DNA from: an uncultured Gammaproteobacteria bacterium
GTDB taxonomy: Bacteria; Patescibacteriota; Microgenomatia; Daviesbacterales; UBA10151
Assembly: GCA_964390595.1 (NCBI GenBank)
Contig: CAYMIA010000003.1
Coordinates: forward strand, 17,727 to 81,726
Reading direction: 5' to 3'
DNA length: 64,000 nt
A program made the position numbers and the translations under genes. The notes beneath the pieces were generated by a model that saw only the letters and a list, made by a program, of their open reading frames with translations, was not told the origin of the DNA and did no database searches. Shown piece by piece: positions 41,116 through 56,480 of this stretch. Each line of letters opens with the position of its first letter. The first letter of the stretch is position 1.

Positions 41116-42822
41116 ATGCAACCAAATCAATCTAGCACGCCTTTAAACATCGAAGATGTTCTTCTGGAACAAGGAGTCTTAAAGCCAGATCAAGTTTCAG
41201 CGATTAAATTGGAAAGCATCAATACCGGTCAATTAGCTGAACAGATTATTACTGAGCATAACTTTGCAGCCCCTGAGCAGATTGCTCAAGGTCGGGCTCA
41301 ATTAATTGGCGTCCCTTTTGTCTCTTTGGAAGGAAAAGCGATCTCTCCTGAAGTTTTAAACTTAATCCCTGAGCCTGTTGCCAGCAGGTATAAGCTCATT
41401 GCTTTTGATAGGGACAATGAGGGGGTATCTGTTGCCATGAGTGACCCGCTAGATCTTCAAGTAGTCCAATTTATTGAAAAAAAGACCAATCTTAAAGTTA
41501 AGCGGTTTTTGGGTTTAACTGATCAGATCCAATCAGCGATTAAAAACGAGTACTCTCAAAATTTAACCACCGATGTGGTCTCCGCCCTTAAAGAGGTCAA
41601 TGCTTCTCAAAATCAATCGGCTGAAGTCCAAGATGAAGCTGAAGTTATTAGGGAGGCGCCTGTTGCCAACATCGTTAATCAACTTCTAGAATACGCCATC
41701 AAAACTAAGGCTTCTGATGTGCATATCGAGCCTGAGGAAAAGCAAACCAGGGTTCGCTACCGGATTGATGGAATCTTGCATGAAAAAATTATTTTACCCA
41801 AAAAGGTTCACGATTCAGTCGTTTCCCGGGTTAAAATCATGTCCAATTTAAAAATTGATGAAAGGCGTCTACCTCAAGACGGTCGTTTCAGTTTTCAATT
41901 CGGTAATGAAGAGATTGACCTTCGAATCTCCACTCTGCCGACTGTTTTTGGTGAAAAGGTAGTAATGCGGCTGCTGTCAAAATCCGAAAAACCTCCTACC
42001 CTACCTGAGCTGGGTCTGCGGGCTGGCGCTCTAAAAAATCTCGAACTGCAACTCCTCAGGCCCCACGGGGTGATTATAATTTGTGGACCAACTGGCTCTG
42101 GAAAGACCACCACACTTTACTCCATTCTCTCCCGTCTCTCCACCACCAAGGTTAATATTTTAACAATTGAGGATCCTGTTGAATATCAAATCGTTGGAGC
42201 CAATCAAGTTCAGGTGAACACTCAGATCGGTTTAACATTCGCTTCAGCGCTCAGATCTTTTTTGCGGCAAGATCCGAATATCATTCTGGTTGGAGAGATC
42301 CGAGATACTGAAACAACTGATCTAGCCATTCAGGCCGCCCTAACTGGCCACCAAGTTTTTTCCACACTACACACTAATTCTGCCGCAGGAGCGCTGCCCA
42401 GGTTGATCGATATGGGCGCTGAGCCATTTTTACTATCCTCTGCCATCAATGCAGTTGAAGGGCAACGAATCTTAAGAAAGGTGTGTCCCCATTGCAAATC
42501 CATCTATACTCCTCCTCCAGAAGTTCTGGAAAATTTTAAACAGATTTTAGGAAGTCTCACTCCAACTGGACCAATTCAATTTTACAAAGGCACTGGTTGC
42601 AATGAGTGTGGTCACAGTGGTTATCTAGGCCGGATTGGCATCTACGAGGTTTTAGTCGTCTCAGATAAGATTATGCAGCTGATTTTACGAAGAGCAGCCA
42701 CAGGTGAAATTGAAAAACAAGCTGTTGCGGAAGGCATGATTACCATGAAGCAAGACGGTTATCTCAAAGTAGCTGAGGGTATCACTACCATGGAAGAGGT
42801 GTTACGGGTCGCTCAAGATTAA
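41116..42822 (+). CDS. pilB: Type IV pilus assembly ATPase (GspE/PilB family)
   Basis: N-terminal GSPII_E_N-like domain. Walker A GPTGSGKTTTLYS. Tetra-Cys CPHC...CNEC. Confidence 0.85.
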   Translation: MQPNQSSTPLNIEDVLLEQGVLKPDQVSAIKLESINTGQLAEQIITEHNFAAPEQIAQGRAQLIGVPFVSLEGKAISPEVLNLIPEPVASRYKLIAFDRDNEGVSVAMSDPLDLQVVQFIEKKTNLKVKRFLGLTDQIQSAIKNEYSQNLTTDVVSALKEVNASQNQSAEVQDEAEVIREAPVANIVNQLLEYAIKTKASDVHIEPEEKQTRVRYRIDGILHEKIILPKKVHDSVVSRVKIMSNLKIDERRLPQDGRFSFQFGNEEIDLRISTLPTVFGEKVVMRLLSKSEKPPTLPELGLRAGALKNLELQLLRPHGVIIICGPTGSGKTTTLYSILSRLSTTKVNILTIEDPVEYQIVGANQVQVNTQIGLTFASALRSFLRQDPNIILVGEIRDTETTDLAIQAALTGHQVFSTLHTNSAAGALPRLIDMGAEPFLLSSAINAVEGQRILRKVCPHCKSIYTPPPEVLENFKQILGSLTPTGPIQFYKGTGCNECGHSGYLGRIGIYEVLVVSDKIMQLILRRAATGEIEKQAVAEGMITMKQDGYLKVAEGITTMEEVLRVAQD

Positions 42823-42823
42823 T

Positions 42824-43903
42824 ATGAATATCTTTCAACTACTTGATTTAGTCATCAACCGAAGCGCCTCGGATCTGCATTTAGTAGTCGGCTATCCTCC
42901 GCAACTTCGGATAAACGGCGAGCTGTTAGCAATCGAGGGATTAAATCCCTTAACCAATGAAGACGCCCAAAATTTAATTGTGCCCCTTTTGAGTGAAACC
43001 CAAAAACAGGTCTTGGATAAAGAGTGGGAGGCCGATTTAGGCTTTGACTTTGAAGGTAAAGGCCGCTTTCGGATCAATATTTATCATGAAAGAGGCCATG
43101 TAGCCGCCGCCCTAAGGCTGATCCCAATCAAGATCCGCAGCTTAGAAGAAACAGGTTTGCCGCCCCAGGTTTCCCGGGTTACCACCCTAAAGCAAGGCTT
43201 GATCTTGGTAACTGGTCCAACTGGTCACGGCAAGTCAACTACTTTAGCCTCAATGATCAACCAAATTAATCACTCCAGAGCATCTAATATCATTACCATC
43301 GAGGATCCGATTGAGTTTATTTACCCCAAAGCCAAATCCTTAATCTCTCAAAGAGAGGTCTCAGGTGATACCCGGACTTGGGGTAATGCTCTCCGGTCAG
43401 CTCTGCGGGAAGATCCAGACGTGGTTTTGGTGGGAGAAATGCGCGATCTAGAGACCATTTCAACTACACTGACTATAGCTGAGACTGGTCACTTGGTTTT
43501 TGCGACTCTTCACACCAATTCTGCATCTCAGACAATTGACCGGATTGTCGATGTGTTTCCTGAAGATCAGCAACAGCAGATCAAGATCCAACTGGCTGGA
43601 GTCATCGAAGCAATCATCTCCCAAAGACTAATCCCGACTATCTCTCCCGGACGGGCGCTAGCTTATGAACTTTTATTCAGTGTCCCAGCCTTGAAATCAC
43701 TGATTAGGGAAGGTAAATCACATCTGATCGATAATCTGATTCAAACTTCAGCAGAGACCGGCATGGTTAGTTTGGAGATGTCACTGGCGCTTCTCGTTAG
43801 AGAAGGAAAAATTACCCAAGAGGTTGCTCAAAACTATTCACTCCGCCCACAAGTGCTTTCTAAAGTCTTGGGAATCTCTCCAACACCAAACCGAGAAACC
43901 TAA
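42824..43903 (+). CDS. pilT: Type IV pilus retraction ATPase
   Basis: GPTGHGKSTTLASMI, VVLVGEMRD, AETGHLVFATLHTNSA. Confidence 0.85.
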   Translation: MNIFQLLDLVINRSASDLHLVVGYPPQLRINGELLAIEGLNPLTNEDAQNLIVPLLSETQKQVLDKEWEADLGFDFEGKGRFRINIYHERGHVAAALRLIPIKIRSLEETGLPPQVSRVTTLKQGLILVTGPTGHGKSTTLASMINQINHSRASNIITIEDPIEFIYPKAKSLISQREVSGDTRTWGNALRSALREDPDVVLVGEMRDLETISTTLTIAETGHLVFATLHTNSASQTIDRIVDVFPEDQQQQIKIQLAGVIEAIISQRLIPTISPGRALAYELLFSVPALKSLIREGKSHLIDNLIQTSAETGMVSLEMSLALLVREGKITQEVAQNYSLRPQVLSKVLGISPTPNRET

Positions 43904-43906
43904 ACT

Positions 43907-45118
43907 ATGTCAGTTTTTACATATAAAGCCAAAGATCTACAAGGAGCCGAACACAAGGGTACTATCGAAACAGTCGACAGCCACCAAGTCGCCAGAATTT
44001 TAATAAAAAAAGGACTAGTAGTTATTTCAATCAAAGAAAAAAAAGAGGGTGAAGGGGCGGGCTTTCTTAAACGTTACTTAAACAGAGTCTCATTTAGCGA
44101 CATCGTTATTATGACCCGCCAGTTGGCCACCATGGTTGAGGCCGGATTGGTCTTGTCCGAGGCACTCGATATCCTCCAGGACCAACAGCCTAATAAGACC
44201 TTCAAGGAGGTTCTGGGAGCAGTTTCCAGAGATATTAAAAGTGGACTAGATCTAGCCTCTTCCCTAAAAAAGCACCCCACAGTTTTCCCGCCACTTTATT
44301 GTAATTTGGTTAAAGCCGGCGAGCAATCTGGAAAACTTGATTCAACTCTCTCCCAGATGGCTGTTAATTTGGAGCGGGACCGGGAATTCCGTTCCAAAAT
44401 TAGATCAGCGATGATCTATCCAGTTATCGTTTTGGTCATGATGGCTGTGGTTATGGCGGTTATGATGTTTTTTGTGATTCCTAGGCTAACCTCTCTGTAT
44501 TCTCAGTCCAGCATCGATTTACCATTACCGACCAAAATTTTGATTGGTACCTCCAACTTTTTTATTCATTTTTGGTGGCTGATGTTAATTTTTGGCGTAG
44601 TTGGCTTTATTGCGTTTAAGAAATGGGTGTCTACTCCAACAGGCCGGTTTACATTTGATTCTTACCTACTTAAAACACCCGTAGTTTCGCGTGTCATTAA
44701 GGGCACCTCGCTGACTAACTTTACTCGGACATTCGGCTTACTGACAACCGCTGGCATCCCAATTTTAGATTCCATCTCAATTGTGGGAGAGGTTATCGGC
44801 AACTCAGTTTACCGGCAAGCCCTAAAAGATTGTTTTCGTGGTGTTGAGCGGGGGTTAACCTTCTCAAGTCAGCTTGAAACAACCGGAGTTTTTCCTAAAA
44901 TAATCTCTCAAATGATCAGAGTGGGCGAAGAAACCGGTAAAGTTGACGAAGTCTCTTATAAGCTGGCCGAATATTTTGAATCAGAGACTGATAGCCTGGT
45001 TAAGAACTTAACAGTTATTATCGAGCCGCTAGTTTTAATGCTGCTCGGTATCGGTGTAGCCTTCCTAGTTCTATCTATCATCCTGCCTATTTATAAGTTG
45101 ACTACTAGCTTTAGCTAG
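43907..45118 (+). CDS. pilC: Type IV pilus platform protein (GspF/PilC family)
   Basis: Two T2SSF repeats and 3 TM helices. Confidence 0.8.
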   Translation: MSVFTYKAKDLQGAEHKGTIETVDSHQVARILIKKGLVVISIKEKKEGEGAGFLKRYLNRVSFSDIVIMTRQLATMVEAGLVLSEALDILQDQQPNKTFKEVLGAVSRDIKSGLDLASSLKKHPTVFPPLYCNLVKAGEQSGKLDSTLSQMAVNLERDREFRSKIRSAMIYPVIVLVMMAVVMAVMMFFVIPRLTSLYSQSSIDLPLPTKILIGTSNFFIHFWWLMLIFGVVGFIAFKKWVSTPTGRFTFDSYLLKTPVVSRVIKGTSLTNFTRTFGLLTTAGIPILDSISIVGEVIGNSVYRQALKDCFRGVERGLTFSSQLETTGVFPKIISQMIRVGEETGKVDEVSYKLAEYFESETDSLVKNLTVIIEPLVLMLLGIGVAFLVLSIILPIYKLTTSFS

Positions 45119-45187
45119 TACACCTTTCAGCAACTTACAGCTTGCAGATAAGCTCACAACTTCTTTTTCTTAAGGCGGTTTTACCAC

Positions 45188-45218
45188 TTGACGGACCAAG
45201 AAGTTTTATGACTACAAT
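45188..45218 (+). promoter_or_regulatory. Candidate promoter for pilA (TTGACG ... TACAAT, 19-nt spacer) followed by strong RBS AAAGGAGGTGA at 45235-45245
   Basis: Hexamers read from the sequence. Spacer is longer than optimal. RBS is 10 nt before the ATG. Confidence 0.3.
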
Positions 45219-45255
45219 AGTTTAAGAAGTCTTTAAAGGAGGTGATTTAGTTAAA

Positions 45256-45810
45256 ATGAGAAAAACTGCTCAAGGTTTCACTTTAGTGGAACTTTTAATC
45301 GTTATAGCAATTATCGCTATCTTAGCAGCAGTAGTGGTCCTTATTGTCAATCCTCTTGAGTTAACTAGACGGGGTCGTGATGCCGCACGTCTTTCTGACT
45401 TTGCTAATTTACAACAGGCTATTAATATCGCTGTTCAAGAAGCAACCAACTCAACTCAATATTTACTTTGTGGTGGAGTTGCAGGTTCTTGTGCTGGTAA
45501 CTCTGTTACAGGCACTAGAAGCTCAGCTGGTACCGGATGGGCCAAAGTTAACCTAGGAACACAAACAAGTGTTTCTGTTCCAACCTTGCCTATTGATCCT
45601 ATCAATACAAATACTGGTGTAGGTAATGGTAACCACTACATTTACTGTTCAGATGGAAGTTCCTGGGAAATGGTTACAATCTTAGAGTCTGTACAACAAA
45701 ATTCTAAGATGTCAAATGATGGTGGATCTGATAATGCGAAGTATGAAGTTGGGTCTAGCCTTGCTTTGCTAGGTACTACAATGCCGGGAAGCGTAGCGTG
45801 TGCTTACTAA
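45256..45810 (+). CDS. pilA: Type IVa major pilin
   Basis: Leader MRKTAQG|FTLVELLIVIAIIAILAA with Glu+5. Strong SD. Two C-terminal Cys. Confidence 0.75.
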   Translation: MRKTAQGFTLVELLIVIAIIAILAAVVVLIVNPLELTRRGRDAARLSDFANLQQAINIAVQEATNSTQYLLCGGVAGSCAGNSVTGTRSSAGTGWAKVNLGTQTSVSVPTLPIDPINTNTGVGNGNHYIYCSDGSSWEMVTILESVQQNSKMSNDGGSDNAKYEVGSSLALLGTTMPGSVACAY

Positions 45811-45816
45811 GAGAAA

Positions 45817-46755
45817 ATGGTCTGGTTTTTAATATTAGGTTTTATAGTAGGTACAATTTTAGGAAGTTTAGTTCTCTGTATCGCGAGTAGAGCACTAACA
45901 AAGGAATCGTTTTGGGGGAGGTCGTACTGTGACTTTTGTAAAAAAAAGCTCAGCTGGTACGACCTTTTTCCTATTCTATCGTTTATTTTAAACAGAGGTA
46001 AATGCCGTTATTGCCATAAAAGACTTCCCGTCGAATACATCTTAGTTGAGATTCTCTGCGGCTTAATCATCGCTTATCTATTTTCCACATCAGGTTTGGA
46101 AAAAATTAATTTGGAAAATTTCACCCTCCAAAACTTGAGTCTCCTCCCCAGCCTATTTATTCTATCCGACCTGGCCTTTAAGACCGTCTTTATCGGAGTC
46201 TTAATCGCCACCTTCATTACCGATATAAAAACCGGTCTTATTCCCGATCGGATTACCTATCCCTCAATAGCAATTGCTTTTGTATATGGAATAATTTTGA
46301 CCATCGCTAAAATTGCCTGGGCCTATTATTCGATCGCCCAGTCTTCAATTGGCCAACTCCTTTTGCCTCCCCATTCGGATTATTTTTATAGACATGCCTA
46401 TATCATGGCTACGCCAGAGCTATTTTCCCTTTTGGCAGCGGTCATAGTAACCGTTTTTTTTGCTAGCCTAATCTTTCTTACTAAAGGACGTGGTATGGGT
46501 GGAGGCGATCTGAAATTGGGAATATTTATGGGACTGGTCTTGGGTTTCCCAAATGCTATCTTAGCCATTTTAGCCGCTTTTTTGCTTGGGTCAGTCGTCG
46601 GAGTAATTTTGCTAGCCTTGCAAAGAAAAAGTTTTGGGCAAACTATCCCATTTGGACCCTTCTTAACACTCGGAGGAATTATTGCGCTGTTTTGGGGTGA
46701 TCAAATTATCACTTGGTATGTGCACACCTTTGCTATCACAGGCTCTCTTTTCTAA
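45817..46755 (+). CDS. pilD: Prepilin peptidase (A24 family)
   Basis: CDFCKKKLSWYDL...CRYCHKRL zinc motif. Polytopic, with catalytic Asp pair. Confidence 0.8.
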   Translation: MVWFLILGFIVGTILGSLVLCIASRALTKESFWGRSYCDFCKKKLSWYDLFPILSFILNRGKCRYCHKRLPVEYILVEILCGLIIAYLFSTSGLEKINLENFTLQNLSLLPSLFILSDLAFKTVFIGVLIATFITDIKTGLIPDRITYPSIAIAFVYGIILTIAKIAWAYYSIAQSSIGQLLLPPHSDYFYRHAYIMATPELFSLLAAVIVTVFFASLIFLTKGRGMGGGDLKLGIFMGLVLGFPNAILAILAAFLLGSVVGVILLALQRKSFGQTIPFGPFLTLGGIIALFWGDQIITWYVHTFAITGSLF

Positions 46756-46758
46756 AAC

Positions 46759-47256
46759 TTGTCTTTTTTTAAGAAAGCTCGTAAAGTTAGATTAATGCCC
46801 AGAGAAAAAATTCCAAATTCCAAATTCCAAATTCCAAATGAAAGAGCTTTTACTCTGGTTGAACTGCTGGTAGCGATTGTTATTATCGGGATTGTTTTTG
46901 GAGTAGTCATCACATCCAATTCAGCAATTCAAAGAGGTGCCAGAGATGCTAAGCGCCAATCTGATTTGAGAACGATTCAAGGTGCACTTGAACAATACCA
47001 TTCTGATACCAGCTTCTATCCTGATACCTTGGCGCAGATAGCTAGCCCAACAGCCTATTTAGCTCCCATCCCTTCTGCTCCAACTCCTGGCAATAATTAT
47101 TCCTATGCTCCTCTACCAGCTACCCCAACTCAATGTACTGGTAACTGTACCAGGTATTGCCTAAACGCTCAGCTAGAAAATACACCCAATCCAGTCTATT
47201 CTGGGACATGCTCCCCACTACCAGCCCCCTACAACTTCGCAGTTACATCTCCATAA
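46759..47256 (+). CDS. Pilin-like protein (prepilin-type N-terminus NERA|FTLVELLVAIVII)
   Basis: Hydrophobic pilin helix with Glu+5. Heptanucleotide repeat in the 5' region. Confidence 0.55.
   Translation: MSFFKKARKVRLMPREKIPNSKFQIPNERAFTLVELLVAIVIIGIVFGVVITSNSAIQRGARDAKRQSDLRTIQGALEQYHSDTSFYPDTLAQIASPTAYLAPIPSAPTPGNNYSYAPLPATPTQCTGNCTRYCLNAQLENTPNPVYSGTCSPLPAPYNFAVTSP
46810..46837 (+). repeat. Heptanucleotide tandem repeat (ATTCCAA)x4 at the 5' end of a pilin-like gene
   Basis: Copies at 46810-16, 46817-23, 46824-30 and 46831-37. Not a multiple of 3. Confidence 0.85.
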
Positions 47257-47297
47257 ATTGCTTGTTCAAAGCTTAAAAATATGCTACGTTTAAGGTA

Positions 47298-47867
47298 ATG
47301 TCCGAAGCTAGTTTCACTTTAATGAGCAAAGCTCTTAAAGGAGATCGAGGTTTCACTTTAATTGAGATATTGGTTGCCATCGCCATTATTTCTATTGTCA
47401 CAGTGACCGTGGTCCCCAATTTAAGAAAGTTCAACTCTGATCAGGAGCTCTCCAATGATACCAATAAATTAATTCAAACTTTAAGGCAAGCTCAATCAAA
47501 CGCCCAATCCGGGCTTAAATGCCTTAGATCGCCCACAGCAACTGCTTCAGCTAATTGGATGGTTGGAGCGACTAATTCGGCGACCTTCTATATTCAACCC
47601 ACATGTAATGATGCTAACTTGGGCTTGGTTGCTCCAGCTATTGAAAAAACGACTTACACGCTGACAAATACCAGAATTACAGTCAATTCAACAGGTGTTG
47701 GAACCTGCTTATTGTCTCAACCGCAAGTGACATTTACTAAAAACATTGCCGCCATTACTAACGGTTGCCAATCTAACCCGCTATTTACCCTGACTCATCT
47801 AGTAACTAACAACACTAAATCGGTTTCAGTTGATCCCGGAGGAGCGATCTATGAAAAAACCAACTAA
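47298..47867 (+). CDS. Pilin-like protein (minor pilin/pseudopilin)
   Basis: ...MSKALKGDRG|FTLIEILVAIAII. The probable real start is the internal ATG at 47322. Confidence 0.6.
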   Translation: MSEASFTLMSKALKGDRGFTLIEILVAIAIISIVTVTVVPNLRKFNSDQELSNDTNKLIQTLRQAQSNAQSGLKCLRSPTATASANWMVGATNSATFYIQPTCNDANLGLVAPAIEKTTYTLTNTRITVNSTGVGTCLLSQPQVTFTKNIAAITNGCQSNPLFTLTHLVTNNTKSVSVDPGGAIYEKTN

Positions 47868-48381
47868 CGAATTAGGCCAATCACTCTTAGAAATTACCAT
47901 CACCATTGGCATCGCAGCTCTAATAATTACCGCCTTAGTCATAACCACGCTTGTCGGATTGAAAAATAGTCAATTAGCTCAAAAACAGTCTCAAGCGACC
48001 AAGTTAGCCCAGGAAGGTATCGAGCGACTCCGGGCGCTCAAAAACAACAACATTTCAATTACCGCTGGCGGCACTACTTATTATTGGTACGGCTCTCAAG
48101 GCACCACCATTTGGTCTCAAAATATTTTTTCTGGTGGTGCTTGTCAGTACTGTTATTGGAAGTTTAATTCTACCTGTCAAACTGATTTAAATAATTGTTT
48201 GGTGGCCTCAAGTGCTGCCGATAAAACTAGCTTAGAGTCAATCGGCAGTGGCTTCTTCCGCCAAATTAAGATTGAGGATGAAAATACCATCGATCAGAAA
48301 AAAATTACCAGCACAGTTAGTTGGACCGATTCAGCTGGAGCACATAAATCGCAACTTGTGACCTATTTAACGAATTATTAA
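47830..48381 (+). CDS. Pilin-like protein (probable start 47851, MKKPTNELG|QSLLEI)
   Basis: Hydrophobic N-terminal helix with Glu+5. Confidence 0.5.
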   Translation: MIPEERSMKKPTNELGQSLLEITITIGIAALIITALVITTLVGLKNSQLAQKQSQATKLAQEGIERLRALKNNNISITAGGTTYYWYGSQGTTIWSQNIFSGGACQYCYWKFNSTCQTDLNNCLVASSAADKTSLESIGSGFFRQIKIEDENTIDQKKITSTVSWTDSAGAHKSQLVTYLTNY

Positions 48382-48382
48382 T

Positions 48383-49012
48383 ATGAACCAGAAAGGCTTC
48401 ACTCTAGCTGAAGTATTAGTCGCCCTAAGTATAATTGGGGTAATTGGCGTTATTTTAGTATCTTTTTTAACTCAAACCTTTCGCGGTTCAAGCAAAACTC
48501 AGCTAATTGGAGTAATTAAGCAAAACGGTCAATCCGCTTTAAATATTATCGATCAAGCCAGCCGTTTCGCAACTGGTGTTACCTGCACCGATGATCCCAC
48601 CTTCAATAACGCCCATCTGCTCGCGGTTCACAATCAAGATGGCACTTATACCAGATTTAGGATTTGTAACAAAACAGATGCCACATGCAACGGTTCATTC
48701 CCCAATGGCTATATATCTCAAGACACTAATTCACTACCAAGTAGCTATACCGAATCGCAATTTTGCAACCCAGTTCCCAATCCAGATATCGTGTTTAACG
48801 CTACCAACTCTTCAAAGCTAACTGATACTGATCCTAAAACAGGGGTAGCAGTGACCAACGGCTACTTTAAGGTCATCAAAAATTCAGGCAACCATGATGT
48901 TGTCAATATTTATTTTCAATTAGGTCCCGCTTCAGGAACTGGGCTCGGATTCGAAAACCAGCTTGGTTCAACCAACAGTGCAACATTTCAAACATCCGTC
49001 GTGCTAAGATAA
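48383..49012 (+). CDS. Pilin-like protein (MNQKG|FTLAEVLVALSII)
   Basis: Classic prepilin cleavage motif. Confidence 0.65.
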   Translation: MNQKGFTLAEVLVALSIIGVIGVILVSFLTQTFRGSSKTQLIGVIKQNGQSALNIIDQASRFATGVTCTDDPTFNNAHLLAVHNQDGTYTRFRICNKTDATCNGSFPNGYISQDTNSLPSSYTESQFCNPVPNPDIVFNATNSSKLTDTDPKTGVAVTNGYFKVIKNSGNHDVVNIYFQLGPASGTGLGFENQLGSTNSATFQTSVVLR

Positions 49013-49022
49013 TTATAGATCG

Positions 49023-49937
49023 ATGACAAATACCAAATACCAAATACCAAATACCAAATACCAGCATGGGCAGGTTGTGATTTTATTGCTTCTTGTCATG
49101 CTAGTTGCGCTGACCATCGGGTTAACTATCACCCAGCGCTCGCTTTCTGATGTCTCGATCTCTAGCAAAACTGAACAATCTTCCCGGGCCTTCTCAGCAG
49201 CTGAGGCTGGTATTGAAAAGGCGTTACTAAATCAAACAGCGACAAACTCCGCTGATATTGGTAACCAATCTGGCTACACAGTCACAGTCGCCAGTAATCT
49301 ACCGAGCACTGGCCAGGCCCTAGAATACCCCAAACTGAGCAAAGACAGTATCGAGCAATACTGGTTAATTGATCCAAATATGGCCCTTTCCGCACTTAAC
49401 CTACCGGCCACTACTAATCCAAGTGGTTATGACGGCGGAACCATTGATATCTACTATGAGGATCCAGCTACACCTGTGGGCGACCTAGTGGCTTTGGAAG
49501 TGAATTTAATTACTAAGGACAACACCGGTCTATACAAAAAATACCAGTATCTCTATGACGAAGATGGCGGCCGTCGAACCAACAATAACTTCATTGCACC
49601 TACAGCGTGTAGCACGTTTACAATTAATACACTCTATTCCCCTACAATCAGCACATTAGACAGAACCTTTAAGTGTAAAATTACTGGCTTCAATATTAAA
49701 CCGAGCTCTGAGACATCAATTGCTTTAAGAATTAGGCTGCTCTACTCCTCAACTTCCCAACCTGTCGCAGTGGCTCCAGCTGCCACCAAATCGCTTCCTC
49801 CTCAAGTTTCGCTGTTTACCTCAGTTGGAACCGCTGGCCAAACTCAAAAAACCGTTCAAGTGTTTAAACATGTCAAAGACGTCCCTTTCTTCTTTGACTA
49901 TGCGATCTACTCAGTTTCTCAAATTAATAAGCTCTAA
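49023..49937 (+). CDS. Pilin-like protein lacking Glu+5 (PilX/GspK-like candidate)
   Basis: ...KYQHG|QVVILLLLVMLVAL. Heptanucleotide repeat immediately after the ATG. Confidence 0.5.
   Translation: MTNTKYQIPNTKYQHGQVVILLLLVMLVALTIGLTITQRSLSDVSISSKTEQSSRAFSAAEAGIEKALLNQTATNSADIGNQSGYTVTVASNLPSTGQALEYPKLSKDSIEQYWLIDPNMALSALNLPATTNPSGYDGGTIDIYYEDPATPVGDLVALEVNLITKDNTGLYKKYQYLYDEDGGRRTNNNFIAPTACSTFTINTLYSPTISTLDRTFKCKITGFNIKPSSETSIALRIRLLYSSTSQPVAVAPAATKSLPPQVSLFTSVGTAGQTQKTVQVFKHVKDVPFFFDYAIYSVSQINKL
49027..49054 (+). repeat. Heptanucleotide tandem repeat (CAAATAC)x4 at the 5' end of a pilin-like gene
   Basis: Copies at 49027-33, 49034-40, 49041-47 and 49048-54. Confidence 0.85.
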
Positions 49938-49939
49938 AA

Positions 49940-50353
49940 ATGGATAAAAGAATTTTTTTGAATCAGAGAGGACTTTCCCTGGCCGAGGTCCTACTGGTTA
50001 TTCTGCTAATCGGTTTTATCGTTCCAGTTATTTACAACATACCTAATTCAATCCGGCTAGTTGGTAGTAGCAATAAAACTTCTTTGGCCAAAGAGATCGC
50101 TTCCAAAGCGGTCGAAGACGCCCGGATTTTAACCTATGACAATTTAGCCCTCGGGCAATCAACTATTAATGATCCCCGCATCTCCAAGCTTCCTTCAGGA
50201 GCCGGATCTCTAAATGTGACCACCTGCTCTGCCCCAGTTTGCACCAACAATGAAGAAACCAAAAATATCTCTGTGACTATAAATTGGGATGAAAACGGAG
50301 CACCCAAGTCTTTTAAGTTAACCACACTAGTTTCATCTGGAGGTTTAAGATGA
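49940..50353 (+). CDS. Pilin-like protein (NQRG|LSLAEVLLVILLIG)
   Basis: Prepilin motif with Glu+5. Confidence 0.6.
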   Translation: MDKRIFLNQRGLSLAEVLLVILLIGFIVPVIYNIPNSIRLVGSSNKTSLAKEIASKAVEDARILTYDNLALGQSTINDPRISKLPSGAGSLNVTTCSAPVCTNNEETKNISVTINWDENGAPKSFKLTTLVSSGGLR

Positions 50354-50967
50354 AGCCAAAAAATGATTTCACCTTAATGAGCAAAGCTCTTAAAGGAAAC
50401 GGAGGTTTCACTTTAATCGAGGTCCTCTTGGTTGGAGTGATCGGTTCTGTAGTAGGTATATTACTGATATCAATTTTAGTTCAAAACAATGGTTTGTTTT
50501 CTACACATAGCGCCCAAGTCGCCCAGGGCGTCGGATTAAATGACATTATCAGCGAAGTTTCCAGCTCGATTAAAACAGCCTCTTCAGTCGCCCCCAGTTA
50601 TCCATCTACAAACCCAACTTATATTAGTTCTACCAATACGCTTGTTCTGTCGATTCCTTCAATTGATGCGTCAGGCAACCCCGTTGACAACACTCTAGAT
50701 TTCCTAGTTTTTACCTCCGATAACCAAAATCAAAAGATTCTAAGAGAGCTACTTTTCCCCGATCTAAGCAGCTCCCGTAAATCTATGAATAAAGTTTTGG
50801 CAACAACCCTATCTTCAATCAATTTCTCTTATTCAGATTTAAATGGCAATCCGGTTTCTCCAAGCGTAGCCAGTAAGATCAGCTACACCGTTAACCTCTC
50901 TACCAAAGCAGGTTACGGCACAGAGGAAGCTAGTGCTAGTTCGCAGGCCATCTTAAGAAACAATTAA
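50350..50967 (+). CDS. Pilin-like protein (…MSKALKGNGG|FTLIEVLLVGVIG; probable start 50377)
   Basis: Prepilin motif. Leader is paralogous to the 47298 gene. Confidence 0.6.
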   Translation: MKPKNDFTLMSKALKGNGGFTLIEVLLVGVIGSVVGILLISILVQNNGLFSTHSAQVAQGVGLNDIISEVSSSIKTASSVAPSYPSTNPTYISSTNTLVLSIPSIDASGNPVDNTLDFLVFTSDNQNQKILRELLFPDLSSSRKSMNKVLATTLSSINFSYSDLNGNPVSPSVASKISYTVNLSTKAGYGTEEASASSQAILRNN

Positions 50968-52752
50968 ATGAAAGTTACATTAAACCATTTTCAATCAGGG
51001 CAAGTAGCGGTTATGGCTTTAATTGTCTTGGGACTCATCATTATTAATACCCTAGCCATAGTCGGGGGTTCTTTAACATTTAGTGCTAATACTAAGTATT
51101 CAACAGAGGTCTCCCAAGCAACTAATCTAGCTGAAGCCGGTATTGATAAAGCTGTGGCCTCATTAAATGCCACTGGAGGTAGCTACATTGGGGAAAGCGA
51201 AACTTTCCTGGACCCCGGCTCCTTTAGCGTCTCAGTTACCAGCAAAGACGCATCGACGGATATCATTAAGTCAACCGGTTATGTGCCAAATAAAAGTAAT
51301 CCTAAATCTAAAAGGACCATTCAAATCCAAGCTTCTAAAGGAGTTGGCATTTCATTTGTTTATGGGATGTTAGTAGGTAATGGTGGTATGTCGATGGGAA
51401 ATGGCTCCCGCATTAACGGCTCTGTTTATTCCAATGGTAATATTACGGGTGGAAATAATGAAAATATCACCGGAGATGTCTTTATTGCCAGTGGAACTCA
51501 GCCAACGGCTGATCAACAAAACGATTCTACCTGCCCCAACTGTCTGGACTTTTTCTTCGGCAAAAATATATCCGGGAACAACCAACTTGATATCGCTCAA
51601 AGTTTTAAGCCAAGCACCGGCGCTGTAATTAATAAAGTCAGCTTGAAGTTAAAAAAAATTGGCTCCCCTCCTAACCTAACTGTCCGGTTACTGGGAGATA
51701 GTAGCGGCCAGCCTAACAAAAATAACATCCTAGCTTATGGAATACTTACTGCCAATTTAGTGACCAGTCAATATGGTTTTGTCGATGTCGCTTTCACTAG
51801 CCCACCCAGCCTAACCGCTGGTACTACCTATTGGATTCTGATCGATACCTCCTCTGATAACAACAATTACTGGTCCTGGTCTGAAGATACATTACAAGGA
51901 TATACTTATGGAACTGCGATGTGGTCTCCTGATTGGCAAGTTAGTTCTCCGGTCTGGAACAGTATCAGTGGTGACTTGTCCTTCAAGACCTGGATGGGTG
52001 GTGTGGCTACCTCAATCAGTATGAACAACGGTTCAGTTATTGGTGGCAACGTTCATGCTAACACTATTAGTGGTATCACCATCAATAAAGATGCTTACTA
52101 TCAAGTTATATCTAATTCCACAGTAGTTGGCACCTCTCATCCCAACTCCACTGACCCGGCCTCAATTGCCATGCCTATCTCTGAAGGCAACATCCTCAAA
52201 TGGCAGGAAGATGCTGAGGCCTACGGAGTCACAACTGGTGATATCACCGGTTGTCCGGCTAGAATGGGACCAGGAAAAATTATTGGCAATGTCACTACCT
52301 CAAACAGCTGCACCATCACAGTGACTACCCCAATCTTTATCACTGGTAATTTAACCTTTGGCAACTCAGCTGTATTTCAGATGGACCCTAATTTAGGATC
52401 CTCGTCTGGTGTAGTTATAGTTAATGGAACCACTATCTTTCAAAATTCAGATAATTTGCTTGGCACCGGGCAACCAGGTAGCTTCCTCACTCTTCTTTCA
52501 GCCTATAATTCTCAAACTCAAGGGGGGGACGCCATCAATACTGGAAACAGTTCAATAACAGGCATTTTATATGCTCCTTTAGGGATAATAACTCTGGCAA
52601 ACAACGCCAACTTCAAAGAAGCAGTGGCTTGGCAGATTAATATGGGTACAGGGACGACCTTAACTTATGATTCAGGCTTGATTAGTACCTTCTTTTCCAC
52701 CGGACCCGGAGGGTCATTCTCGATAGTTAAAGGTACCTATCAGATCAAATAA
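50968..52752 (+). CDS. Large pilin-like/pilus-associated protein with N-terminal pilin-type helix and Asn/Gly-rich beta-helix-like repeats
   Basis: FQSG|QVAVMALIVLGLII followed by GNGGMSMGNGSRINGSVYSNGNITGGNNENITGDVFIASG-type repeats. Confidence 0.45.
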   Translation: MKVTLNHFQSGQVAVMALIVLGLIIINTLAIVGGSLTFSANTKYSTEVSQATNLAEAGIDKAVASLNATGGSYIGESETFLDPGSFSVSVTSKDASTDIIKSTGYVPNKSNPKSKRTIQIQASKGVGISFVYGMLVGNGGMSMGNGSRINGSVYSNGNITGGNNENITGDVFIASGTQPTADQQNDSTCPNCLDFFFGKNISGNNQLDIAQSFKPSTGAVINKVSLKLKKIGSPPNLTVRLLGDSSGQPNKNNILAYGILTANLVTSQYGFVDVAFTSPPSLTAGTTYWILIDTSSDNNNYWSWSEDTLQGYTYGTAMWSPDWQVSSPVWNSISGDLSFKTWMGGVATSISMNNGSVIGGNVHANTISGITINKDAYYQVISNSTVVGTSHPNSTDPASIAMPISEGNILKWQEDAEAYGVTTGDITGCPARMGPGKIIGNVTTSNSCTITVTTPIFITGNLTFGNSAVFQMDPNLGSSSGVVIVNGTTIFQNSDNLLGTGQPGSFLTLLSAYNSQTQGGDAINTGNSSITGILYAPLGIITLANNANFKEAVAWQINMGTGTTLTYDSGLISTFFSTGPGGSFSIVKGTYQIK

Positions 52753-52787
52753 TTTACAATTGGTCTTAGACACTCTACAATAAAAGT

Positions 52788-53828
52788 ATGGCTGCCAAAA
52801 ACGTCGTTGGGTTGGATATTGGTTTTTCTTCAACCAAAATCGTTGTCTTATCTCACAAAGAAAAACCTCCGAGAATCGTCTCTCTAGGCTCAATTGCCAC
52901 TCCTCAGCCGGGTATCATCTCAGATGCCGACCTAGATTTGGACGCTGTCGCCCAAGCTCTAAAAAGTCTGGTCAGCGAAGTCAAAATCCCAGGAAAAGAC
53001 GTTGTTATTGCCTTGCCTGAGTCCAGAATTTTTACCCGAGTAGTTTATGACCTACCCTACCTCACCAATGACGAACTATCTCAAGCCATTAAATACGCAG
53101 CCGAAGAATTTGTGCCGATGTCGATTAATGATGTTAATTTAAATTATCAGGTGATTTTTAGATCACCTCAAAAAGGACCCAAAAGCCGGACCATTGTTCT
53201 AGTCATTGCCACTCCCAAAGCACTCCTTGAAAAATACTTAAAAGTTTTAACCATGGCTGATTTAAAGCCCGTAGCTATCGAAACAGAGCTTATCGCTGCC
53301 TCGAGATCTCTGGTTGGCAATAACCCCTATTCCCCCACTACCCTAATCATCAATCTCGGATCAACCACTACTGACTACGCAGTCGTTTCTGATGGTTTTA
53401 TCTTAATGACCAGATCAATTGCCACTGGCGGAAATGCCCTCACGCGGGCGATCGCCCAAACCTTTAACTTTGAACTAGTTCAGGCTGAAGAATATAAGAA
53501 AGTTTATGGGCTGCTCGAAGATCAACTTGAAGGTAAATTATTTCAAGCCCTCAAACCAATTTTTGATGTTATTGTCTTAGAAGCCAAAAGAGTGATCCAG
53601 GCTCATGAAGCCCAAAATCCGGATAAAGCAGTTAAAAGAGTCATCCTCACAGGAGGGGGAGCACAATTACCAGGAGTCGTACTTTATTTCGCTAATTCAC
53701 TCGGACTTGAGGTCCAGGAGGCTGATCCCTGGGCGGCTGTAACTAAGGAGGATAACATTAAATCAAAACTGAATGCTAGCGCGGCACTATATTCAGTAGC
53801 TGCCGGACTTGCGCTTCGGGAAGACTAA
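52788..53828 (+). CDS. pilM: Type IV pilus assembly protein PilM (actin-like ATPase fold)
   Basis: VVGLDIGFSSTKIVVL and GGGAQLPGV motifs. Confidence 0.75.
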   Translation: MAAKNVVGLDIGFSSTKIVVLSHKEKPPRIVSLGSIATPQPGIISDADLDLDAVAQALKSLVSEVKIPGKDVVIALPESRIFTRVVYDLPYLTNDELSQAIKYAAEEFVPMSINDVNLNYQVIFRSPQKGPKSRTIVLVIATPKALLEKYLKVLTMADLKPVAIETELIAASRSLVGNNPYSPTTLIINLGSTTTDYAVVSDGFILMTRSIATGGNALTRAIAQTFNFELVQAEEYKKVYGLLEDQLEGKLFQALKPIFDVIVLEAKRVIQAHEAQNPDKAVKRVILTGGGAQLPGVVLYFANSLGLEVQEADPWAAVTKEDNIKSKLNASAALYSVAAGLALRED

Positions 53829-53833
53829 CTATT

Positions 53834-54376
53834 ATGGGCAAAATTCAGATCAACTTACTTCCAAGCGAAGTCGTCCTTTTAGAAAAGGATATTGAAAAAA
53901 GAGCTCTGGCTATTCGGGCGAGCGTCGCCATTTTAGTTATCGTGACCATCCTTAGTCTGACTGCTCTAGTTATTCGCCTAACTCAGAAAATCAGCCTCAC
54001 AACTAACAAACATCAGCTAGATCTGGTCACAGAAAAGGTTCAAGCTCTCAAAGAACAGGAGGGTGTAGTCTCAATCTTAAAACAGCGAGTTAATTCTATC
54101 TCGGGTATCTTGGGCGAAACTAGCAAACAAGAAAAGGCCTTTAAAACCTTAATTGATATATTTCCTAAAAACATCAAGCTACTTTCCATGAGTATCGATA
54201 AAACAGGTAAATTAGATCTCAACTGTGAAACTGAAAATATCACTGATTTAGATGATTTTTTTCAAAGCATTAGTACGCAAGATAGCAATAAAAAGTTTTC
54301 TAAAGTTTTAGTCAATAGCTTGTCTCAAGGAAGCAATGGAAAAATCCGTTTTGATGTTGAGATATCACCTATCTGA
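53834..54376 (+). CDS. pilN: PilN-like bitopic protein
   Basis: Single TM helix after a short cytoplasmic N-terminus. Position follows pilM. Confidence 0.5.
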   Translation: MGKIQINLLPSEVVLLEKDIEKRALAIRASVAILVIVTILSLTALVIRLTQKISLTTNKHQLDLVTEKVQALKEQEGVVSILKQRVNSISGILGETSKQEKAFKTLIDIFPKNIKLLSMSIDKTGKLDLNCETENITDLDDFFQSISTQDSNKKFSKVLVNSLSQGSNGKIRFDVEISPI

Positions 54377-55083
54377 TGGAAAAAGAGATTAAAAAATATT
54401 ATCAGAGATATCAAGTAGTTATCTTGCCTTCAGGGGCATCATTCATCGCTCTAGTGCTTATCGCATTGTTAATAGTGCCAAGCCTTTTTACATATAGTAA
54501 AAACGCGAAACAGCAAACAGAGATCGAACAAAAAACTAAATTACTCAGCTCAAAAGCCACTCAGCTTCAAGCCATTAATGTAACCGCCCTTAAAACTGAC
54601 TTAAATAACACAATTAAGGTTTTACCTCCCGAAAAAGAGGTGACCGCCGCCATCAATCAAGTTCAAATTTTAGCGAGTGCCAATACAATACAAATTCTAT
54701 CATTGGAATACTCTTCAATTGGCGGTATCGATAAATCAGACAATTTTACCATCCGCATGGAAGTTGTTGGTCCGCTTACATCGATGAGAAACTTTGGCGA
54801 CAGTCTGCGGGAATCTGCCAGGGTGATGAAAATCAAAGATATCGAAATTAATGGACTCAGGGGAGGTGTTAATTATAGCGCCACTCTAACAATCTCAGTT
54901 TATTATCAAGCCGTACCCAGCTTGATTGGAGAAGTTGATGCCCCCTTCGTACCCCTTTCTCAATCGGACCAAGAATTATTGGCCAAAATTAACAACGCCT
55001 TAGAAAAATTCGGATCAGTTAACGCTCCATCTGAGGACTTTACCGGCACCGGGCCAGTTGGCAAACCAGATCCTTTTCAATGA
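54376..55083 (+). CDS. pilO: PilO-like bitopic protein
   Basis: Single TM helix and coiled-coil. Start overlaps the pilN stop. Confidence 0.45.
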   Translation: MEKEIKKYYQRYQVVILPSGASFIALVLIALLIVPSLFTYSKNAKQQTEIEQKTKLLSSKATQLQAINVTALKTDLNNTIKVLPPEKEVTAAINQVQILASANTIQILSLEYSSIGGIDKSDNFTIRMEVVGPLTSMRNFGDSLRESARVMKIKDIEINGLRGGVNYSATLTISVYYQAVPSLIGEVDAPFVPLSQSDQELLAKINNALEKFGSVNAPSEDFTGTGPVGKPDPFQ

Positions 55084-55767: not shown

Positions 55768-56091
55768 TTACTGGGCAACTTCTGGATCCTGTTGCTGACC
55801 TGCCTCTTCAATACCCTGGACCTCTTCAGTACTAGGGCTATCTTCCCGGGGAGTTGGATTGGGGTCAAAAAGTTGTAAATTAACCCGGACATTGTCAGCC
55901 ATCGCCCTGACTGTTAAGACTTTTCTAATCGCCTTTATCACCTGTCCACCCTTACCTATCACCTGCCCCATGTCGTCTGGATGAACAGTTAATACCAGTG
56001 TAACTGAGCCTGGTTGGGTCTGCTCTTCAACCGAAACATCATCAGGACTTCCGACGATACTTTTAACTATGTATAAAACTAGATCTTTCAT
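55768..56091 (-). CDS. KH-domain RNA-binding protein (YlqC-like)
   Basis: [19 protein letters not shown] loop. Conserved position between rpsP and trmD. Confidence 0.6.
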
Positions 56092-56480
56092 TTAGGAGCT
56101 TCCTCATCAGAGGATTCAGTAGGTGTCTCAGGTGTCTCAGGTGTCTCAGGTGTCTCAGGTGTCTCAGGTGTCTCAGGTTCAGCTGCTTTTGGTTCTGCTG
56201 CCGGAGTTTCAGCTTTTTCTTTTTTGGGTTTGCGAGGAGCTCGTTGCTTGGCCTCACCAACGATCCGCAAATATCCATCAGAAGGTTGGGCACCTTTTTT
56301 AATCCACTCAGCGATCCTCTCTTTGTTCAGGTTAATCTCTTTTGGTTCAGTTAGCGGATTGTAAGTACCCAGAAGCTCAATAAACCCACCTGTTCTCTTT
56401 CGGCGCTCGTCAACAACGACCACCCGGTAGAAGGGCCGCTTCTTTGCACCAATTCGCATCAATCGGATCTTTGCTGGCAT
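56088..56480 (-). CDS. rpsP: 30S ribosomal protein S16 with C-terminal (ETP)n low-complexity extension
   Basis: [42 protein letters not shown], then [19 protein letters not shown]. Confidence 0.85.
56121..56174. repeat. 9-nt tandem repeat (AGGTGTCTC)x6 inside the rpsP 3' region
   Basis: Six perfect copies read from the sequence. Confidence 0.9.

Follow-up and report, generated by a model that had tools for sequence, protein, structure and literature searches.

The two heptanucleotide tracts that open two pilus genes in this DNA are, at what we would call even chances, translated and tolerated microsatellites that occupy a dispensable N-terminal extension of the two proteins, with the reading frame kept by selection. 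They are the sole perfect period-7 tracts with at least three copies in the window, that is, the whole 64-kb stretch of DNA that was analysed. Each of them begins a pilus gene of a single cluster, within its first 45 nt, and this hints at something beyond passive tolerance; at random, the chance of such a placement would be about 1e-4, according to a rough estimate.

Both tracts belong to a complete type IV pilus cluster of the forward strand (41116–55083), in which Pfam scans recognized PilB, PilT, PilC, the major pilin, PilD, several pilin-like genes, PilM, and PilO; the gene at the PilN position has no Pfam match. Among named relatives, Daviesbacteria (Microgenomates, Patescibacteria) are the best. 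Gene 1 (46795–47256, forward strand), the first of the two tract-bearing genes, encodes a prepilin-type protein of 153 aa with a match to Pfam N_methyl (PF07963, E 2.9e-8), and an identical protein record exists at NCBI. Its leader comprises residues 1–18 (46795–46848), MPREKIPNSKFQIPNERA, and is followed by FTLVELLVAIV; from this motif, cleavage by PilD is predicted before F19 (46849). The processing-site region reads ERA and then FTLVELLVAIVIIGIV, with Ala at position −1 as in the homologues P0014, P0018, and P0019. Gene 1 has, in fact, the complete set of features of a type IV pilin with a class III signal peptide, namely a hydrophilic leader, a small residue at −1, FTLVE, a helix, and an adjacent PilD. 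The prepilin peptidase gene, identified by the Pfam domains A24_N_bact and Peptidase_A24, is located directly upstream (45817–46755, forward strand), and judging from the motif its product would cut away the tract-coded leader.

Gene 2 (49023–49937, forward strand) had been described in the sequence-only reading as a second pilin-like gene. It encodes instead a pilus assembly protein of the PilX_N type, 304 aa long, with a match to Pfam PF14341 (E 2e-5) that is slightly below the curated cut-off, and it has no classical prepilin G/FTLIE site. Its tract-coded N-terminal tail precedes the transmembrane helix GQVVILLLLVMLVAL, such that residues 2–14 stand before GQVVILLLLVML. Shine-Dalgarno cores (GGAG, GAGG, or AGGA at −18 to −4) are scarce in the window, where they were found in 8 of 55 long ORFs; the major pilin gene (45256) has a strong one, GGAGGTGA. 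Neither tRNA genes nor Rfam families were detected in the 64-kb window, and scans for promoters and terminators gave nothing relevant.

Tract 1 spans 46808–46839 on the forward strand, with 4.6 copies of ATTCCAA and 100% matches in Tandem Repeats Finder; reading of the sequence shows four complete units at 46810–46837 inside a 32-nt periodic run, as had been proposed together with the encoded peptide IPNSKFQIPN, which forms residues 6–15 of the gene 1 leader. Tract 2 spans 49027–49063 on the same strand and consists of 5.3 copies of CAAATAC, again with 100% matches; it holds five full units and not the four counted earlier, and it encodes residues 2–14 of gene 2, TNTKYQIPNTKYQ. The second unit had been called near-identical to the first and, once rotated to the register of tract 1, it becomes ATACCAA, which is one base apart from ATTCCAA and is read in the identical codon phase. 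Both tracts are translated as ATW CCA AAT WCC AAA TWC CAA, giving IPNSKFQ in tract 1 and IPNTKYQ in tract 2, and both start 4–13 nt past the sole usable ATG of the respective gene. The pattern ATWCCAAATWCCAA, allowing at most one mismatch, had 7 matches against 0.26 expected from shuffles, and none of the shuffles reached 7. The perfection of the two tracts would be explained either by a recent origin or by selection for mutability.

The sequence-only reading took tract 1 as a candidate for phase variation, since a change of one unit would shift the frame relative to the starts at 46759 or 46795. This arithmetic is borne out by the frames and by simulated alleles. Upstream of tract 1, starts are present in the pilin frame only (TTG 46759 and ATG 46795); the other two frames are closed by TAA 46793 and TAG 46788, with no start past those stops. 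For tract 2, the other frames are stopped upstream by TGA 49024 and TAG 49016, and there is no start there. Simulated alleles of either gene with one or two units more or less yielded products of 10–44 aa, and those differing by three units kept the full-length protein. In gene 1, there is no ATG, GTG, or TTG between the tract and the mature N-terminus, and the in-frame GTG 49078, TTG 49087, and ATG 49099 of gene 2 are all inside the membrane helix, where they offer no rescue. The unit is not a multiple of three, the tract follows the only start and precedes the functional part of the gene, and no rescue start exists, so that slippage by one or two units must inactivate the gene. The tracts have in common with contingency loci that they are non-triplet simple sequence repeats (SSRs) within an ORF, of which a one-unit change abolishes the full-length product in simulation. 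A simulated 1-unit allele of gene 1 would read MPREKIPNERA before the F, and a simulated 2-unit allele of gene 2 would begin with MTNTKYQHGQ; both have the N-terminal length typical of their families, which the present alleles thus exceed by exactly three units.

These structural features speak for a true contingency locus, in which slipped-strand mispairing would switch the pilin-like subunit and the PilX-like protein ON and OFF and thereby vary pilus composition or function in a host-dependent bacterium of the Candidate Phyla Radiation (CPR). The perfection of both tracts and their location in surface-organelle genes of one cluster also favour it, and four to five copies pass the common thresholds of phase-variation predictors for units of 5–9 nt. 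We nevertheless regard it as unlikely. Metagenomes were scanned, without regard to frame, for a tract separated by 0–30 nt from a sequence coding for FTL[IV]E. The 20 contigs obtained supplied 17 distinct loci, which, together with gene 1 of the window and the locus L115 from a genome scan, make 19. In 14 of these, the pilin frame holds an ATG that is at most 60 nt upstream and open through the tract; such an ATG is in the +1 frame in one locus and in the +2 frame in none. Regarding the other four, an in-frame TTG precedes the tract by 3 nt in L144, start codons are present at a greater upstream distance in L142, and in L129 and L135 the frame is open from the upstream gene. The only out-of-frame locus, L115, carries a second frameshift 47 codons on and, being frameshifted twice, is a pseudogene or an assembly error. 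With ATG in frame in 14 loci versus one, translation through the tract is the rule and frequent OFF alleles are not evident; the mixture of ON and OFF genes known from contingency loci is not seen. The structural premise of the phase-variation proposal was right; against its functional side stand these frames and the lack of any length polymorphism in the assemblies compared.

Copy numbers at the tract-bearing pilin loci range from 3.6 to 5.3, and the tract is identical in L130, L134, and L139 (one locus in three samples) and in L143 and L146 (one locus in two samples), which also argues against frequent switching. Over longer times, the arrays do change. In the orthologues L143 and L145, whose flanks are roughly 85–90% identical, the heptamer arrays are rearranged, with a net in-frame difference of 21 nt; the change of the arrays speaks for a contingency locus, and the comparison was also counted in favour of a tolerated microsatellite. 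The pilin gene after the tract-bearing one has a heptamer-rich leader (MKNPNFKIQNPNKIQNS...) in L145 and the plain MKNKKLKVHRIG before F in the L143 orthologue, which shows that relatives at this level of identity gain or lose such arrays. The nucleotide identity of the tracts of L130 and L137 was considered as a sign of constraint and rejected, as it is largely a matter of ascertainment in a search whose pattern demanded the tract.

Two known systems are precedents for switching. Neisseria opa genes contain (CTCTT)n inside the signal-peptide coding region; the opa tracts are longer, most copies in a genome are OFF, and their variation is documented experimentally. The tracts described here resemble them in being non-triplet SSRs in the cleaved-leader part of a surface-protein gene. 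In neuO of E. coli K1, carried by prophage CUS-3, an (AAGACTC)n tract in the 5' coding region causes translational phase variation, and a survey of 64 genomes found 3–53 units, with 65.6% of the genomes OFF and with measured mixed populations (PMC13001214). The likeness to neuO is close as regards a heptanucleotide repeat right after the start, full length only at frame-keeping unit numbers, and an N-terminal repeat peptide (PMC13001214). However, the 4–5 units found here, without polymorphism and with 14 related loci in frame against one out, form a low and narrow range when set against the neuO figures, and validated heptamer switches are usually longer (most commonly 20 units in neuO and 13–38 in hmw). 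Heptamer SSRs are over-represented in bacteria, typically with about 4 units and with no association to surface genes (PMC4692102). We consider the phase-variation reading arithmetically sound and unsupported as a fast switch.

Other copies of this locus were sought as well. Exact-protein look-ups of PilD, gene 1, and gene 2 gave no second assembly, and a metagenome scan with the upstream flank of the locus itself had no match. The neighbouring genes led to short Logan contigs from SRR9179559 and SRR9179560 that are 100% identical to the window save one base in L006; these contigs agree with the window as far as they can be read, and none spans a tract. One of them, L001, starts at 46810, and another, L004, ends at 49057 inside tract 2. 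Breaks of the De Bruijn contigs exactly at the two tracts are what mixed repeat lengths and, hence, a contingency locus would produce, since longer alleles would interrupt a k=31 graph there; k-mers shared with identical tracts of other organisms explain the breaks equally well. Since the heptamer unit is widely distributed, other organisms in the samples are likely to share its periodic 31-mers, which would break the graph at these positions too; for this reason, the breaks, first read as evidence of length heterogeneity, were not taken as diagnostic of it. The end of L004 is one base off the position predicted by a pure longer-allele model, and further Logan contigs end at non-repeat positions, indicating that coverage was also low.

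Homologues of the two genes were inspected for conservation of the tract-coded peptide. None of 21 homologues of gene 1, at most 45% identical to it, has the tract; their leaders are ordinary and mostly short (4–8 aa), for example, MNFKKG or MPKRG before the F. For gene 2, 880 homologues were found, mostly from Daviesbacteria, and in approximately 110 of the 120 listed only 4–7 residues precede GQ. Longer tails that resemble degenerate heptamer arrays are present in the gene 2 homologues P0038, P0121, and L147, the last with an upstream ATG that had been skipped by the gene caller; such tails are as expected for decaying microsatellites and, looking decayed and not maintained, they speak against a contingency locus. 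Another pilin leader, in L098, contains the array in reversed orientation, where it encodes FGIWNLEFGI. The possibility, raised in the sequence-only reading, that the repeat encodes a conserved peptide under purifying selection does not hold, given that homologues of both genes do without the tract; with the opposite orientation in L098 in addition, a conserved functional peptide was rejected. A protein search with a synthetic leader peptide listed only short proteins. The gene 2 homologues P0069 and P0094, which seemed to lack the N-terminal tail, were considered as OFF alleles and attributed instead to choices in gene calling.

On the reading that we prefer, both tracts would be lineage-specific microsatellites of a widespread (CCAAATW)n family that became fixed in pilus subunit genes, in a segment that may tolerate nearly any in-frame hydrophilic sequence. 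In gene 1, this segment would be the class III signal-peptide leader, presumably removed by PilD, and in gene 2 a short cytoplasmic tail ahead of the membrane helix. On this reading, translation starts at the ATG immediately ahead of each tract and yields (IPNSKFQ) and (IPNTKYQ) peptides. They probably arose by replication slippage, and may expand or contract by it, with selection retaining only frame-preserving alleles. Out-of-frame variants would arise at some low rate and give truncated products; we judge them a by-product and not a dedicated high-frequency ON/OFF switch.

The family to which the tracts belong was delineated by a genome scan. ATWCCAA at three or more copies was found in at least 120 DNA stretches (and species) from many phyla when single-species representative genomes were scanned. 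Among the matches listed, the hosts include Bacteroidota (among them cultured Flavobacterium and Salinimicrobium), Acidobacteriota, Cyanobacteria, Verrucomicrobiota, Calditrichota, and about 25 Patescibacteria, and the copy numbers go from 3.1 to 8.6. The 111 listed tracts concentrate at gene edges: 32% are located within 60 nt past a stop codon (about 4% of random positions), 19% just ahead of a start (about 4%), and 10% inside a gene but within its initial 60 nt (about 5%), whereas mid-gene positions are depleted (28% versus 73% at random). Expressed otherwise, 72% of the listed tracts are not mid-gene, against 27% at random; the window itself contains just tracts 1 and 2. The listed loci that carry ATWCCAA tracts have, elsewhere, 74 perfect tandem repeats with periods of 4–12, and in 40 of these the period is 7. 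Many of the tracts lie next to further heptamer arrays or are matched by an inverted copy with a T-run after it, in a terminator-like arrangement. An array followed by an inverted copy, (GGAATTT)n, was seen in L008, L042, L089, and L093 and in the Flavobacterium loci L019, L049, L050, and L120; in the latter four, a T-run follows the inverted copy, forming terminator-like hairpins with stems of tandem heptamers. In this orientation, CCAAATW has no stop codon in any frame, so that it can occupy coding leaders. In L116 (Doudnabacteria), two arrays, at 1828–1860 (33 nt) and 1976–2005 (30 nt), are in frame within one open frame of 467 codons. CPR proteins, this suggests, can retain heptamer arrays as in-frame insertions.

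The (CCAAATW)n family has the characteristics of the over-represented bacterial heptanucleotide SSRs of the STRR, TAACTGA, and GGGAATC type. TAACTGA repeats occur across phyla, adjoin start codons, and are found inside ORFs mainly at the periphery of the protein (PMC4679880). Like the TAACTGA repeats of Beggiatoaceae, Cyanobacteria, and Bacteroidetes, the cyanobacterial STRR, and the GGGAATC repeats of Xanthomonas, CCAAATW is present as roughly 2–6 copies of one 7-nt unit in distant phyla with no known vehicle, mostly intergenic near gene ends, within ORFs solely at the periphery of the protein, and in hosts with an excess of period 7 (PMC4679880, PMC4692102). It differs from them in the unit and in its recurrence in type IV pilin leaders of Patescibacteria, which is undescribed in the literature searched; the tract sequence itself was in no paper of that literature. 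This mostly intergenic distribution, with no specificity for surface genes, weighs further against a contingency locus. The more ambitious proposal that (CCAAATW)n is a dedicated cis-element, recurrently acquired in the leaders of Patescibacteria pilus subunits as a slippage-driven switch and spreading across phyla, appears to us very unlikely.

The tracts might also act in the RNA. A G-free tract rich in A, C, and U would keep the initiation region unstructured, or would bind a factor of the S1 or Csp type, aiding initiation without a Shine-Dalgarno sequence, and the peptide would be incidental. This is consistent with the start of the tract at 4–31 nt past the ATG in most loci, with the enrichment of tracts just upstream of starts elsewhere (19% versus 4% among the matches listed), and with a like role proposed for TAACTGA repeats (PMC4679880). 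Furthermore, when eight pilus genes were compared, the initiation regions of genes 1 and 2, neither of which has a Shine-Dalgarno sequence, showed the least structure (−9.6 and −11.1 kcal/mol per 100 nt, versus −17.3 to −23.4 for the others), and the tract is unpaired; this low structure is, however, trivial in a G-free sequence. Shine-Dalgarno sequences are rare in the organism (8 of 55 genes) and were found in none of 13 tract-bearing pilins, but the base rate of the organism (15%) is already so low that their absence was rejected as informative. Against the same idea, more tracts follow stop codons than precede starts, often in terminator-like inverted pairs, the L098 pilin leader carries the array in reversed orientation, and most homologues do without it. 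An RNA-level role is possible and weakly supported, and we consider it distinctly unlikely as the explanation of the tracts.

The similarity of sequences around some tracts raises the idea of a mobile-module footprint or cargo, namely, a leader with its heptamer array that recombination would move from one pilin gene to another and that, in some lineages, would take an upstream four-helix-bundle gene along. In L132 and L141, a block of about 170 nt comprising the end of the four-helix-bundle gene, the ATG, the leader, and the tract is approximately 95% identical; identity drops to about 55–65% in the pilin bodies. Such a gene, which from its sequence would resemble those of the 23S rRNA intervening-sequence proteins, is directly upstream of the tract in L129, L132, L135, and L141 and adjoins the tract in L038 (Dolichospermum); the reading frame of the gene in L129 and in L135 continues directly into tract and pilin. 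The window, however, has no four-helix-bundle gene, and among the matches listed it is present in just 2 of 120 genome loci. In addition, tract 1 and tract 2 have unrelated flanks, and neither transposase nor inverted repeats were found nearby. For these reasons, we think it scarcely probable that the tracts in the window came with such a module.

Should the tracts switch, they would constitute the first contingency locus, or phase-variation system, in CPR bacteria; no paper in the literature searched links the pili of Patescibacteria with phase variation. The CPR pilus is thought to serve host contact and DNA uptake, and an episymbiont could, by switching, vary its minor-pilin and PilX composition and hence host attachment or DNA uptake. 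Switching or not, type IV pilin leaders of Patescibacteria repeatedly host in-frame heptamer arrays, and gene callers and signal-peptide predictors should expect them, since some callers pick downstream starts. The presence of (CCAAATW)n in at least 120 species of many phyla is a further example of the excess of 7-nt repeats among bacteria, which is unexplained.

Other repeated elements were observed in the window. The pilin-like genes at 47298 and 50350 have an identical 23-nt segment in their leaders (47319–47341 and 50374–50396), within a near-identical stretch of about 55 nt, which encodes FTLMSKALKG before the real GFTLIE site. The segment includes a small palindrome, GAGCAAAGCTC, with arms TTAA/TTAAAG, and is flanked by the direct repeat TTTCAC(T/C)TTAAT, resembling a duplication around an insert; its RNA folds better than shuffles, with z values of −1.7 and −2.4. 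Finally, the gene of ribosomal protein S16 on the minus strand (56088–56480) carries at 56121–56178 a perfect 9-nt repeat, AGGTGTCTC, in 6.4 copies that are in frame and form a C-terminal extension of the protein.
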